This document shows, in pieces, positions 10,248-46,700 of a DNA stretch of 64,000 nt. A model generated the notes under the pieces. The model searched no databases. It saw nothing but the letters and a program-made list of their open reading frames with translations, and was not told the origin of the DNA. A program made the translations under genes and the position numbers. The number at the start of each line of letters is the position of its first letter. Position 1 is the first letter of the stretch. This DNA comes from Felis catus (lineage: Eukaryota). The DNA lies in NCBI RefSeq assembly GCF_018350175.1, contig NC_058382.1:8866001-8930000 (forward strand). The letters run 5' to 3'.

Positions 10248-13200
10248 ATGGGTCCCCAAGTAGCCCTCCTGGTGGCGGCGCTAGCCGGCTGCCTGCTTCC
10301 TGCCGGGGGCTGTGTCATATGTGATCAGAGGGTCGTGGCCGCGCTGGACGCCTTGGAAAAGGAATACCTGCCTACCCACATGGCGCGCGAGCGTCAGGGA
10401 CAAGTGATGGAAACGATAAGACAAACCGTGAGAAATTTCTGGGACCTGCCATATTTAGAGGATGCCTTTATGGGGGTTATAGGTGAGGGCAGGGTAGAGC
10501 GTGGGAACCCCGGGTCGTGGAAAAAGAGGAGTCTGGTGCTAGGATTCCTGGGAGCAGGGGCGGGGTGGGGGGAGGGAGGGAAGGGCCGGAGCCAGAGTCT
10601 ACTGGGTTCGTGATGGAGAGGGCTGAGATGCAGATTCCAGGGCTTTCCGAGCCCTAGGAAATACTGTGTTCTACCCCTTACCCTGCAATTTTATGTAAAA
10701 AACTACAACTCCCAGAAGGCAACAGACAGGCAACCCTTTACAGCCCTAGCCTTGCCCAGTAGCCACATGGGCATTGTAGTTTTTAACACTAGCTGAGCCA
10801 ATGGGACCACAAGGCTTCGAATCTGAGGTTCTATCTCCCCTCCCCGCATCCCCCGTGTCCCTCCAGATGAGGCCACAATGGAAACGTCAGTGTTGGGTTT
10901 TCTGAGGAGTATGACACTTATCACAAACAGTGACATAGCAGGTAAATGGCAGAGTGGCCAGGGGAGGGGCTTCGGAATCCTTTGGCTCTGGAGCCAAACT
11001 GCCTAGGTTCAAACACCGGCCCTGTCATCCCCTGGCTGTGTGGCCTTTAGGGAGGGATGTCACGGCTTTGTCACCTCCAAACTGGGTCATAACGGTGCCT
11101 GCACCCAGGCCAGTGACTTAGCCCAGTGGCCAGCATGGTTAAGTGGTCATCCAATTTCACTGCCCCTCCCGGAGATGGCCCTAACCTGGAACGCCAGCCT
11201 CTTCAGACGGGTACCTGTACCTCCTCCTGGGGTGGGTGGGGGGAGGGGTCGCACTCTGTCACCCTGCTCTTTCCCAGATGACACTTTCGTGAAGGAGTTC
11301 TCCTGGATGTTGACTCTGGAAAAGGCGGCCTTTCAGCGCAATGTTGCTCGGTTCCAAAGAGAGGGTGAGGGAAGATGGGGTCCCTCAGGGACCACAGCCC
11401 CTTCCTCCACCACTCCCGGGGTCCCTGTCCCCAGTCCCCTGCTTCTCTGTGTCCAGCCCCTCGCCTCTCCCAACAGGGTCCTCCCTCCAACCCAAGAGCC
11501 CAAACCCCAACCTATTCCTTCTCCCCCTCTCTCGTGTCCTTTAACTTAGAAATCTCATAACTTTTTTTTTTTTCTTCCTTCTGAGGCAGATTTCTGTCCC
11601 AACAAATGTGGTGAGTCCAGATTAGGGAAGCTGGTGTTCTATCCCCCATTCTGGCCCCGGTTAATACCCAGCCTTTCTCCTCCTGCTTTGGGTCTCGATG
11701 GTTCTTCCTTCCCCACGTCTGAGAGGTTCCTGGTCCCCAGTGGTCCTTCTGCACAGCGGATTTCCTGGACAGCGGGTCCTATTGCATGTGGGCTCCTCGC
11801 TGAGCCCGGTTAGATCCCTCTTCCCGCAGGTCTGCCTTCTAGCCCCGCCCCTTGGGCTGACCTCTCGGGATTAGGCGCTGGGCCCCGCCCCAGCCCTTGA
11901 CCCTGCCCTCTCCTTTCAGTCTCTTCTATCGGGATAAATGCAACCTTGATCCTGCCCCTTCAGGTATGATGTTGCAGCCTCTGATCTGGTGCAGTAATTG
12001 TAAAAAGCAGCTTCACGTTTGTCGCAAGTCCACAGATTGCGGTGGTGAGAGAGCTGGGGCCGGCTGGGGGGGGGGGGGGGGAGGGGCGGGGTTGGCGCAA
12101 GAGGGGCGGAGCCAGAGGAGAGCCGGGGTCTAGAGAGGCCAAAGAAAGGAGCCGGCCCACCAGAAAAGTGGGGGCCAAGACCAAGTGCGAGGGAGTTGGG
12201 GGAGAACCAAGACGCATCCCACCGTAACCGCCTGTCCCCAGTGCGCCACATCAACGTCCACGGAAAGGAAGACTTGGTCCTGGACTGTGAGCTCCACTGG
12301 CATAAGTTATCTCAAGGCCTGACCTATTACAGCTTTTACAGGGTGGGCCCTCCAACCCCATCAACCCCACGTCCATTAGGCTTGGTTGAGCGCCCACCCC
12401 GGTATCCACGAGCTTGTTCCCACAATCCCCATGACCCATGACCTACAAGGTTTGACTTCTACAGGTCCCCGGGGACCCCATGCCCTTACCAGTGACCCTG
12501 GACTCCCATCTCCCCCACTGAGAGCCCGTGATGCCCTCACACCTGTACTGCCCCAAACCCTGAACTCCCCAGGCCTCTGTGACCCCTTGAGCTTGGGTCT
12601 AGGTTTGGGGGAGCAATTCTGAGACCTTGGTGTACAAGGGGAAACAGCCCACCCTGACCAAGCCCCTGGTGGGGCCAGAGGATGCAGGTGACTACCGCTG
12701 TGAGTTGGGCACCGTGAGATCCCTCCCAGCCACGGTCATCCATTTTAAAGTCACAGGTCAGAGCTGGGGAGTTGACGGAAGTGTGGGAATCAGGGTCCTG
12801 GGGTTAGGGGACAGTCAGCTTGGGGCATGGCCTATGGGGCAAAACTTCCTGTCGGGGTGTCATTTCAGGCCACGGGGGTGTGGCCACCCGCCACGGTGGC
12901 CGGGGTCCAGGCAGATAGGGTCGCGATTGTCTCCTCCAAGGCCCGGGTCTTGGGGGAAGGTTGGAGGGGAGGGAGCTTGCCTGGGCCACGGGGGACCTTG
13001 GTGGCCTCCCAAGGCTGTTCTTTCTCTCTCCTCTATCAGTGTTGCCTCAAAGAATCATTGAGGAGACACCGACATCAAACTTTGAAACCGAGGAGCAGCT
13101 GTCCCCAACCCTCCCGCCTTCAGAGCACCCTAAGCCCGAGAAGGTGCTGAGAAGCCTTCTGGTAGGGCTGCTGATCTGGGGCTTTGTGGTGCTGATCATC

Positions 13201-43778: not shown

Positions 43779-46700
43779 ATGGGCCCCCAAGTAGCCCTCC
43801 TGGTGGCGGCGCTAGCCGGCTGCCTGCTTCGGGCCCGGAGCTGTGTCATTTGTGATCCAAGGGTCGTGGCCGCGCTGGACGCCTTGGAAAAGGAATACCT
43901 GCCTACCCACCTCGCCCCCGATCGTCACAGACAAGTGATGGAAAGGATAAGAGAAACCGTGAGGGATTTCGGGGACCTGCCATATTTAGAGGATACCTTT
44001 ATGGGGGTTATCGGTGAGGGCAGGGTAGAGCGTGGGAATCTAGGGTGGAGGGAAAGCAGGGGTCTGGTGCTAGGATTGCGGGGGGCGGGACAGGAGGTAA
44101 GGGTTGGAGGCAGAGTCCGCTGGGTTCGTGAATGGAGAAGACTGAGATGCAGATTCCAGGCCTTCCCCTGGGCAAAGGAATAGGCTGTTTCCCTAGTCCT
44201 TATCCTGCAATTTTGTAAAAAAACAAACAAACACACAAACCCAGAAACAAAAACAAAAACAAAAACAAAAAAAAAACTACATCTCCCAGAAGTCAACGGG
44301 CGTGCAATCCTTTTACAGCCCTGGACTTGCCCCGTAGCCTCATGGGTAGTGTAGTTTTTGACACTAGCTGGGCCAATGAGACCTTAAGGCTTGGAATCTG
44401 AGGTCTAGCTCCTCTCCCCCATCCTCTGTGTCCCTCCAGATGAGGCCACAATGGAAACGTCAGTCTTGAGTTTTCTGAGGAGTGTGACACTTATCAGAAA
44501 CAGTGGGGCAGCAGGTAAATCCACACAGGGGCCAGGGGATGGGGCTCCAGAAACTTTTAGAGAAATGTTTTTTGGTGAGGACGGGTCTGGTGGTGGCTCT
44601 GGAGCCCACCTGCCTGGGTTCAGCTTCAGGCCTGGCCACCCCTTAGCTGTGTGGCCTTGAGAGAGGAATTTCCCTGGTTTGTCACCTCTAAAGTGGGTCC
44701 TAACAGTGTCTTCACGCCAGGCGCTGCTTAGCTCAGTGGCCCGCATTGTTAAGTGGTCATTCAATGTCACTGTCCCTCCCTGAGATGGCCCCAAGGTGGA
44801 ACGCCAGCCTCTTCAGATGGAGGCAAACTTCCTGCATCTCCTCCTGGGGTGGGTGGGAGGAGGGGTACCACTCTATGTCACCCTGCTCCTTCCCAGATGA
44901 CACTTTCGTGAAGGAGTTCTCCTAGATGTTGACTCTGGAAAAGGCAGCCTTTCGTGGCTACGTCACTCGATTCCAAAGAGAGGGTGAGGGAAGATGGCTT
45001 CCGTCAGGGACCACGGCCCCTTCCCCCAACAGGTCCAGGGTCTAAGTCCCCAGCCCCTGCTTTCTATCTCCAGCCTCTCACTTCTCCCCACCGCGTCCTC
45101 CCTGGGACCCAGAGATCCAGACATCCGTGTCCTTCTTCCCTCCATCCCCAGAGCCCAAACGCAACCTATTCCTTCTCCCCCCTCTCATCTCCTTGAACAG
45201 GAATCTGATAATCCTTTTTTGTTGTTGTTTTGTTTTTTCTTCCTTCTGAGGCAGATTTCTGTCCCAACAAATGTGGTGAGTCCGGATTACGGGAACTGGT
45301 TTTGTATCCTTCATCCTTGCCCCGTGAATACCCAGCCTTTCTCCTCCGGCTTTGGGTCTCGGTGGTTCTTCCTTCCCCACGTCTGAGAGGTTCCTGGTCC
45401 CCAGTAGTCCTTCTGCACAGCGGACTTCCTGGATAGCGGGTCCCCTTCTCTGGGCGCTCTTTCCTGAGATTGGTTACACCCCTCTTCAGGGAGGACTGCC
45501 TTCTAGCCCCGCCTCTTGGGCTGACCTCTAGGGATTAGGGGCCTGACTCCGCCCCAGAACTTGGCCCTGCCCTCTCCTTTTAGCCTCGCCTCTCAGGGCG
45601 AATACAGCCTGGATCCTGTCCCTTCAGGTACAATGTTGCAGCTTCTGATCTGGTGCAGTAACTGTAAAAAGCAGCTTCACGCTTGTCGAAAATACAGAGA
45701 TTGTGGGGGTGAGAGAGCTGGGGCCAGCCGCAGGGGTTGGCCCAAGAGGGGCGGAGCCAGACTTGTGACGGGGCCAGAGGGGGCGGAGACTGTAGCCCGC
45801 CCACCAGAGAAGGTGGGACCGCCACCAAGTGGAGGGAGTTGAGGGAGGACCAGGAACCTTGAAGAGGCAAAGGAGCACAACCCCTCTCACCAGTGCTCCA
45901 AATCAACGTCCATGAAACGGAAGACCTGATCCTGGACTGTGAGCTCGACTGGCATAAATTATCTCAAGGCCTGACCTATTACAGCTTTTACAGGGTGGGC
46001 CCTTTAACCCCAAGTCCATAAGGCTTGTGTGAGCGCCGACCCCCTCATCCACAAGCTTGTTGCCACAATCCCCATGACCCATGACCCACCAGGTTTGACT
46101 TCTACGGGTCCCCGGGGACCCCATGCCCTTACCAGTGACCCTGGACTCCCATCTCCCCCACTGAGAGCCCGTGGTGCCCTCACACCTGTACTGACCCAAA
46201 CCCTGAATTCCCCAGGCCTTTGTGACCCCTTGAGCTTGGGTCTAGGTTTGGGGGAGCAATTCTGAGACCTTGGTGTCCGAGGGGAAACGGCCCACCCTGA
46301 CCAAGCGACTGGTGAGGCCAGAGGATGCGGGTAACTACCGCTGCGAGTTGGGCACTGAGCGATCCGGCCCAGCCACGGTCATCCATTTTGAAGTCACAGG
46401 TCAGAGCTGGTGGTCGGCAGACGTATGGGACTCAGGGTCCTGGGTGTGGGGGGCAGTCAGCTTCAGCGAGCGCCCTGGGGGGCCTAACTTTCTGTCGGGG
46501 TGTGGTTTCAGGCCAACGGGGGGTGGCTTCCTGCCCAGGGTGCGGCCACCTCTCACAGTGGCCTGGCTTCAGGCAGTGAGGGGCGTGTTTATCTCCTGGG
46601 AGGCCTGGGTCCTGGGGAAGGGTGGCGTGGACAGAGCTTGCCTGGGCCACGACCGGCCCTCCCAGCACTGCCCCTTCTCTCTCCTCTGTCAGTGTTGCCC

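Follow-up and report, generated by a model that had tools for sequence, protein, structure and literature searches.

Introduction

The question raised by the IZUMO1 locus of the cat is whether the exposed tryptophans of the IZUMO1 bundle touch the membrane or hold partner proteins, and the mammalian contact between IZUMO1 and SPACA6 is so far largely predicted. Brukman et al. described a triple mouse mutant, F28A/W88A/W113A, that lowered content mixing in BHK cells while eggs still bound, and no single mutants, W113 included, were among those tested (PMC9671554); the claim that W88 and W113 are needed for fusion and not for JUNO binding, made in a preliminary description of this locus, therefore stands for the triple mutant and outruns that paper for either residue singly. 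The window analysed here (64,000 nucleotides of Felis catus DNA) contains seven tandem IZUMO1 copies, all on the plus strand by exon-by-exon mapping. Cats provide natural variants in which W88 and W113 are uncoupled, plus a candidate compensatory pair testable by double swap, and I consider the case about evenly balanced that the array records two separate changes: W88 traded with SPACA6, and a W113 loss that marks a likely specialised class (copies 3, 5 and 6) with altered egg-facing surfaces.

A seven-copy array between conserved neighbours

Residue numbers follow human IZUMO1, aligned without gaps, and the array and its flanks are laid out as follows.

5313..6875, plus strand: upstream flank, glycosyltransferase family 11 open reading frame
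10248..13561, plus strand: copy 1, open, 353 aa; L88, W113, W148, H157
14706..18179, plus strand: copy 2, open, 374 aa; L88, W113, H157; exact match to P0197
19362..22647, plus strand: copy 3, open, 355 aa; L88, E113, Y157
23181..29690, no strand: insertion of ~6.5 kb, dispersed old repeat sequence, abutting the 5'-truncated copy 4
29691..33106, plus strand: copy 4, pseudogene; W88, A113, Y157
34282..37861, plus strand: copy 5, open, 368 aa; L88, K113, Y157; predicted IZUMO1 fold
39136..42621, plus strand: copy 6, open, 405 aa; S88, A113, Y157; exact match to P0059
43779..47287, plus strand: copy 7, mosaic, stop at codon 113
48579..49475, plus strand: downstream flank, Ras-association-domain exon

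The upstream reading frame I take to be FUT1 and the downstream exon is presumably RASIP1, the same two neighbours between which mammalian IZUMO1 lies. The array copies carry both the Izumo (PF15005) and Izumo-Ig (PF16706) domains, the feliform IZUMO1 rows (n=35) group in the tree as one clade (support 100/100), and the array is orthologous to mammalian IZUMO1 by position and descent. It is common to cats, hyenas and the meerkat, and I found no published description of a seven-copy feliform array, although Carnivora tables in bioRxiv supplements could mention extra copies. Among 7 exon-1 and 14 Ig-exon matches there was no further IZUMO1 locus outside the array, every Ig match lying inside it; the insertion has 61 listed repeat matches, mostly of 70-80% identity, and no Pfam match in the eight frames tried. 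One-gene studies of felid IZUMO1 (cat sperm antibody work, and the Carnivora selection preprint, in which a 346-aa isoform type corresponding to copy 1 was taken as 'the' felid Izumo1) may have drawn on a single paralog or on a mixture of them.

Copies 1, 2, 3, 5 and 6 are intact (five of seven), and copies 4 and 7 are broken. Copy 6 has diverged furthest, with changes at 25 of 91 sites that are invariant elsewhere. Copy 4 has neither start codon nor signal peptide and carries W148C, a 7-bp deletion in exon 5 and a stop in exon 7; copy 7 joins exons 1-2 that are 100% like copy 5 to exons 3-9 that are 98-100% like copy 2; and the 5' half of copy 3 exon 2 is copy 2-like within introns like those of copies 4 and 6. 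Gene conversion among the copies is evident from such sequence patterns. All 10 ectodomain cysteines are retained in copies 1, 2, 3, 5, 6 and 7, and a signal peptide with one membrane helix (hydrophobic segments read from the sequence) is present in all but copy 4. Copies 1 and 2 have W148, H157 and R160 together, and copies 3, 5 and 6 have W148 and R160 with Y157. The copy 5 model, predicted from an alignment that contained IZUMO1 orthologs, comprises a four-helix bundle, hinge and Ig fold with top hits that are all IZUMO1 (Foldseek E 3e-32). RefSeq isoform models exist for copies 1, 3, 5 and 6.

Residue 88 and the SPACA6 contact

Codon 88 was correctly described from the start as Leu in copies 1, 2, 3, 5 and 7 (TTG), Ser in copy 6 (TCG, at 39775) and Trp only in pseudogene 4.

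10893..10895, plus strand: codon 88 of copy 1, TTG, Leu
30303..30305, plus strand: codon 88 of copy 4, TGG, the sole W88 of the array

The further proposal that W88 divides fusion-competent from other paralogs fails, W88 being missing from all five open copies, copies 1 and 2 included, and from 111 of 112 feliform database rows. Outside the feliforms it is present in 39 of 40 species, a count from top-scoring hits only that overstates conservation; canids have M or V at residue 88, two talpids (moles) have L and an opossum has S, and a pipistrelle has also lost W88. W88 and W113 behave differently: with no open copy retaining it, and with canids and moles lacking it too, W88 does not sort paralogs. 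Free variation of both residues among single-copy carnivores, named beforehand as evidence against a functional split, is seen at 88 (M/V in canids), and residue 113 stays W in the non-duplicated rows that contain exon 3. Furthermore, residue 28 in the cat is R and copies 1 and 2 keep one of the three aromatics (F28, W88, W113), no open copy having F28 or W88 and only copies 1 and 2 having W113; a definition of fusion competence by all three would include no open copy.

The helix 3 face is remodelled in feliform IZUMO1 (residues 83, 85, 88, 92 and 96), and SPACA6, which is single-copy and was located via its let-7 neighbour (the IZUMO1 profile gave only E 0.75), carries reciprocal changes in feliforms: L130F opposite W88L, V146A opposite K92R and E132D opposite R96L. 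A human AlphaFold model from the literature (PMC11052572, supplement 6) predicts distances of 4.5 Å for W88-L130, 4.7 Å for K92-V146 and 4.6-5.9 Å for R96-E132. When changes on the feliform stem were set against those on the pinniped side, with bat and rhino as outgroup, IZUMO1 residues 22-134 gave 26 versus 1 and SPACA6 27-154 gave 14 versus 0; the IZUMO1 hinge and Ig gave 3 versus 8 and the SPACA6 Ig 3 versus 3. With canids as the comparison, IZUMO1 residues 80-104 still gave 8 versus 0. W88L was likely traded against the reciprocal SPACA6 change, judging from these substitutions and the predicted model. The contact map, being a prediction, may share the same covariation and hence not be independent, and the loss of W88 in canids, moles and the pipistrelle means that compensation may not be required. 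Six of the 13 measured SPACA6 changes lie >13 Å from sampled IZUMO1 atoms, with no background set for comparison, and a complex prediction of copy 5 with cat SPACA6, run without alignments, scored 0.00 in two runs and is uninformative in either direction.

As to mechanism, I think it probable that early feliforms remodelled this helix face jointly with the SPACA6 hinge, and that copies 1 and 2 would consequently still build the IZUMO1-SPACA6-TMEM81 complex and perform the essential job. On a more tentative reading, the W88L/L130F swap would amount to proof from nature of the mammalian IZUMO1-SPACA6 interface, and would show that W88 serves in packing and does not insert into the membrane for fusion.

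Residue 113 and the JUNO-facing hinge

Codon 113 also reads as first described: TGG in copies 1 and 2 (at 15808 in the latter), GAG in copy 3, GCG in copies 4 (at 30715) and 6, AAG in copy 5 and TAG in copy 7.

11304..11306, plus strand: codon 113 of copy 1, TGG, Trp
20417..20419, plus strand: codon 113 of copy 3, GAG, Glu
35464..35466, plus strand: codon 113 of copy 5, AAG, Lys
40191..40193, plus strand: codon 113 of copy 6, GCG, Ala
44923..44925, plus strand: codon 113 of copy 7, TAG, stop (assembly sequence only, no read check)

All 40 non-feliform species compared have W at residue 113, as does every additional non-duplicated mammalian row containing exon 3 (canid isoforms are without exon 3 and so uncounted), a conservation that exceeds chance variation. 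The several independent, mostly multi-nucleotide changes first proposed at this codon were overstated, since the tree requires two amino-acid changes and one recent stop, tolerates a single origin of the loss (p-AU 0.29), and GAG to GCG, GAG to AAG and TGG to TAG each take one base change. The losses can be ordered: before the cat lineage parted from that of hyenas and mongooses, W113 had gone from one duplicate, the ancestor of copies 3, 4 and 6, and felid copy 5 lost it later, for which conversion of exon 3 or a new mutation may both fit (shared sites 5:5 versus 34:158 elsewhere, p 0.025, post hoc). W113 loss probably marks a derived class (copies 3, 5 and 6), and the earlier view that it marks paralogs that remain open is borne out by conservation across felids (98.3-98.7% for copy 3 in jaguar, lion and lynx) and by the invariance of W outside duplicated lineages.

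Codon 157 is TAC in copies 3, 4, 5 and 6 and CAC in copies 1, 2 and 7, which confirms the H157Y reported for the three open copies, where hinge residues 150-158 have changed with it. H157 lies in the JUNO interface, and its replacement by Ala raises KD (PMC12381214). Platypus IZUMO1 has Y157 together with W113 and W148, and H157Y may therefore leave JUNO binding unaffected. The coupling to W113 loss is loose, hyena and meerkat copy 5-type genes having W113 with Y157 and a bobcat copy 7-type A113 with H157. An expanded JUNO family was ruled out, since a single one of the 15 PF03024 matches is a JUNO locus. Copies 3, 5 and 6, with W148, R160, the membrane anchor and presumably the fold retained and with the CD9/SPACA6-facing W113 and the JUNO-facing hinge both changed, would act as auxiliary egg-binding variants with a shifted partner preference, not as stand-alone IZUMO1 replacements, a role on which I stand midway between belief and doubt.

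Alternative explanations

Birth-and-death drift, in which one or two copies suffice and the rest decay under relaxed constraint, W113 loss being incidental and shuffled by conversion, seems to me unlikely. It accords with two of seven copies being broken, with the mosaic DNA, with A113 inside an otherwise copy 2/7-like exon 3 in the bobcat copy 7-type, with the absence of exon 3, skipped in many database isoforms, and with a dN/dS near 1 between paralogs (0.8-1.25), which relaxation and selection fit equally well. However, copy 3-, 5- and 6-type genes are open in cats and hyenas (3- and 5-type also in the meerkat), copy 3 is 98% conserved across felids, introns 1, 2 and 5 of copies 3 and 6 are 91-94% alike versus 70-87% for exons 1, 2, 3 and 5, and the class-specific pattern recurs in squirrels.

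The split offered in the preliminary description, with copies 3, 5 and 6 binding JUNO normally without fusing (adhesion-only or decoy) and copies 1 and 2 fusing, could call on the retained W148 and R160, on the mouse triple mutant and on W113 as a predicted bridge between CD9 and SPACA6, but is improbable given that copies 1 and 2 also lack W88 and that PMC9671554 has no single W113 mutant. An adhesion-only class is doubtful because it needs lost bundle aromatics with a preserved JUNO face, and H157 with its hinge neighbours is changed in precisely the open copies that lost W113, facing a single-copy JUNO. That all five open copies are complete and interchangeable, adding dosage or allelic breadth, is very unlikely: the aromatic Y/F at feliform SPACA6 residue 140, 6.7 Å from W113 in the PMC11052572 model, could fill the W113 space and the copy 5 model is an IZUMO1 fold, but every feliform species with several rows retains W113 copies, copy 1 is 97-98% conserved, squirrels retain a W113 A-type and a charged E or K at 113 would be a poor substitute.

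Comparison with known systems

Mammalian IZUMO1 (human PDB 5F4E, 5JK9; mouse 5B5K) shares with the cat its domain order, 10 ectodomain cysteines, W148, R160, membrane anchor and predicted fold; it differs in being one gene versus seven in tandem, in the W88 that is gone from open cat copies, and in the W113 and H157 that are altered in three of them. The IZUMO1 FWW mutant (PMC9671554) is alike in losing exposed bundle aromatics while keeping W148; it is an engineered triple-Ala mouse protein in cultured cells, whereas the natural cat copies also change the JUNO hinge, and cat copies 1 and 2, though the conserved ones, have only one of the three aromatics. The changed cat residues fall on predicted SPACA6 and CD9 contacts of the IZUMO1-SPACA6-TMEM81 complex with JUNO and CD9, and the portions available of the works that predict it (PMC11052572; bioRxiv 2023.07.27.550750; SPARK, bioRxiv 2026.05.13.724128) describe neither several-copy IZUMO1 lineages nor a reciprocal W88L/L130F pair.

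The closest parallel to the two-change reading favoured here lies in the IZUMO1-like duplicates of marmot and ground squirrel (RefSeq models), which differ in their independent origin in rodents and where a W113-less class appears to have arisen in parallel. W113-keeping squirrel copies change 83/88/92/96/106 (S88, R92 and V96 in theirs), and derived copies lose W113 (Q/R113) and gain Y157 as in the cat. Adjacency of the squirrel duplicates is suggested by accession order and shared contig size only. In post hoc tests that treat all invariant sites as equally mutable, cat copies 1 and 2 share 5 of 9 changed invariant sites with the marmot A-type (expected 1.0), changes confined to cat copies 3/5 share 4 with those confined to the marmot B-type (37, 113, 154 and 157; expected 1.0), and both cross comparisons share 0. 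Tentatively, duplicated IZUMO1 may have split along the same lines in feliforms and again in squirrels, with a core copy that re-tunes the SPACA6 contact and a derived copy, without W113 and with Y157, that recognises a different egg ligand or JUNO state.

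The array and its surroundings

Self-comparison of the window places seven repeats of about 4.5 kb between 9.6 and 47.4 kb, and mapping exons onto the seven plus-strand IZUMO1 copies (c1 to c7) identifies five open genes (c1, 353 aa; c2, 374 aa; c3, 355 aa; c5, 368 aa; c6, 405 aa), together with c4, which has a truncated 5' end and a frameshift, and c7, whose codon 113 (human numbering throughout) is a stop. All 7 exon-1 matches and all 14 Izumo-Ig matches in the whole cat genome lie inside this array, which is flanked by a GT11 ORF and by an exon encoding an RA domain, which I take to be FUT1 and RASIP1, respectively. 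Other features are as follows.

2789-3145, minus strand: first coding exon of what is presumably an FGF21-like gene; this piece has no Pfam match
18083-18130 (c2), 32988-33053 (c4), 42503-42568 (c6), 47191-47238 (c7): 15-bp repeats extending the cytoplasmic tails
22116-22350 (c3), 37279-37537 (c5), 41939-42206 (c6): lengthened Ser/Thr-rich stalks made of 21-bp repeats
23181-29690: old dispersed repeat insertion adjoining the truncated 5' end of c4

Relative to c1 and c2, the ectodomains of c3, c5 and c6 would stand farther off the membrane on these longer stalks. No open cat copy has an equivalent of the human N-glycosylation sequon, which I take to sit near residue 204 (window 12603-12620 and equivalents), and it is also missing from sea lion and horse; new sequons appear in c3 at residues 63 and 195.

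A published description of the array was not found in literature whose coverage is short on subscription journals. A Carnivora preprint, in the text available, treats felid Izumo1 as one 346-aa gene and contains none of the words "copies", "tandem" or "expansion", and the accessible portions of PMC8830517, PMC4807442, PMC10312551 and PMC11011130 do not mention it. Someone may nevertheless have studied the array, since the copies already carry the label "IZUMO1-like" in RefSeq, and a cat c6-type protein, WMV02795.1, is deposited in GenBank; it shows four residue differences from the c6 of the window and is thus an allele or a converted form. Felid sperm IZUMO1 is reported to run at ~17 kDa on immunoblots (PMC11011130, available part), far under any full-length cat copy (353-405 aa).

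Age and gene conversion

The paralog types are also found in other cats, hyenas and meerkat, and in a 44-row tree 35 of 35 feliform rows form a single clade (support 100/100), within which c3-types group with c6-types (99/96). On a 25-row tree built without columns 88, 113 and 157, W113 and H157 each require two changes, and the single-clade alternatives were not rejected (p-AU 0.29 each). Because W113 and Y157 occur together in hyena and meerkat c5-types, the loss of W113 from felid c5 came later. The DNA of the array is mosaic: tracts at 96-100% identity are common to c4 and c6, and c3 and c6 match at 91-94% in introns 1, 2 and 5 and at 70-87% in exons 1, 2, 3 and 5. The informative sites of c5 are shared with c3 at 5:5 in exon 3 versus 34:158 elsewhere (a post hoc comparison). 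A bobcat c7-type has A113; the variety of residues at 113 can therefore be accounted for by a single loss or two, changes of one base at a time, and conversion. The DNA of c7 joins c5 exons 1-2 to c2 exons 3-9 (window 43779-47287), a recent mosaic, and its stop either arose recently or reflects a misassembly, because W113 is retained by c7-types in clouded leopard, Canada lynx and fishing cat.

W88 and W113

The preliminary description proposed that loss of W88 and W113 separates fusion-competent c1 and c2 from adhesion-only or decoy c3, c5 and c6. Its codons 88, 113 and 157 agree with exon mapping, and what it observed is confirmed; the proposal fails for W88, because every open copy lacks this residue, c1 and c2 included, and other mammals vary there too. 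Among 40 non-feliform species (one row each from the best 120 of 195 matches, exon-lacking isoforms removed, a set biased toward conserved proteins), W88 is present in 39, and W113 and H157 in all 40; deeper rows reveal other residues at 88 (M in two foxes, V in wolf and dingo, L in two talpids, S in one opossum), and 9 of 9 pinniped rows keep both tryptophans. The 125 feliform rows include isoforms and are not independent; W88 occurs in 1 of the 112 bearing exon 2, a RefSeq model fusing c4 exons to c6 without a signal peptide. Since that joined model is the sole instance, cats would appear to reproduce with W88 missing from every open copy. Residue 88 belongs to a set of five otherwise invariant sites, with 83, 92, 96 and 106, that are altered in 16 of 16 open feliform rows tested. 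In the available text of Brukman et al. (PMC9671554), the mouse F28A/W88A/W113A triple mutant is the only one tested; a commentary calls for in vivo proof (PMC9856796), and the accessible part of the SPARK preprint proposes DCST1/2 as the membrane-inserting part (bioRxiv 2026.05.13.724128).

The W113 half stands in part: W113 is present in every non-duplicated mammalian row holding exon 3, which points to its loss as the mark of a real derived class, while the proposed role remains putative. W113-less copies retain W148, R160 and 10 cysteines, and c5 has a predicted IZUMO1-like fold. Identity across felids is 98.3-98.7% (c3), 93.5-94.3% (c5), 93.2-97.0% (c6) and 97.3-98.2% (c1), and dN/dS between paralogs is 0.50 in the c1/c2 pair, with a range of 0.81-1.25 over the other nine pairs. 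H157 lies 6 Å from L81 of JUNO in the predicted five-chain human model (IZUMO1, SPACA6, TMEM81, CD9, JUNO), and H157A raises KD (PMC12381214, available part); JUNO is single-copy in cat; H157Y can be tolerated, as platypus IZUMO1 has Y157. The mole Talpa occidentalis has L88, L148 and Q157 in place of W88, W148 and H157 and retains W113; the usual JUNO contact may be altered in that lineage.

Coordinated change with SPACA6 and a squirrel parallel

SPACA6 is single-copy in cat. With bat and rhino as outgroup, SPACA6 residues 27-154 accumulated 14 feliform versus 0 caniform stem changes (Ig domain, 3 versus 3), and IZUMO1 residues 22-134 accumulated 26 feliform changes versus 1 pinniped change (hinge plus Ig, 3 versus 8); with canids as the comparison, IZUMO1 gave 8 versus 0 in residues 80-104 and 4 versus 5 in residues 22-79. 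Distances from 13 of the 14 SPACA6 sites to 13 IZUMO1 atoms, taken for these sites alone from the published model (PMC11052572 and supplement 6), rest on a prediction that may share the covariation signal: five of 13 sites fall below 8 Å (L130-W88, 4.5 Å; V146-K92, 4.7 Å; E132-R96, 4.6-5.9 Å; 140-W113, 6.7 Å; D148-K92, 7.8 Å), two at 10-11 Å and six beyond 13 Å. IZUMO1 W88L and SPACA6 L130F form a large-small swap, which suggests a compensatory pair in the predicted interface. No in vitro binding was seen between the human ectodomains, according to the available text of PMC9482655.

Marmots and ground squirrels carry A-type (S88, R92, V96, W113, H157) and B-type (Q/R113, L/I154, Y157) IZUMO1-like genes that form a clade of their own; no description of them appears among the best 10 of 821 literature matches, where coverage is weak. 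Over 81 invariant non-cysteine sites, cat c1 and c2 share 5 of 9 changes with A-type (expected 1.0, p 0.001), the c3/c5-only changes of cat overlap the B-only changes at 4 sites (expected 1.0, p 0.007), and the cross comparisons share 0. Both p values are too small, because the sets were chosen after the data were seen and mutability is higher at the surface. In one Callospermophilus copy, W113 is gone but Y157 is not present. A B-type-like model in Sciurus vulgaris, with Y148 and Y157, suggests that the squirrel duplication predates ground squirrels. The stronger result is that IZUMO1 helix 3 and SPACA6 changed in a coordinated way, which is partly repeated in squirrels.
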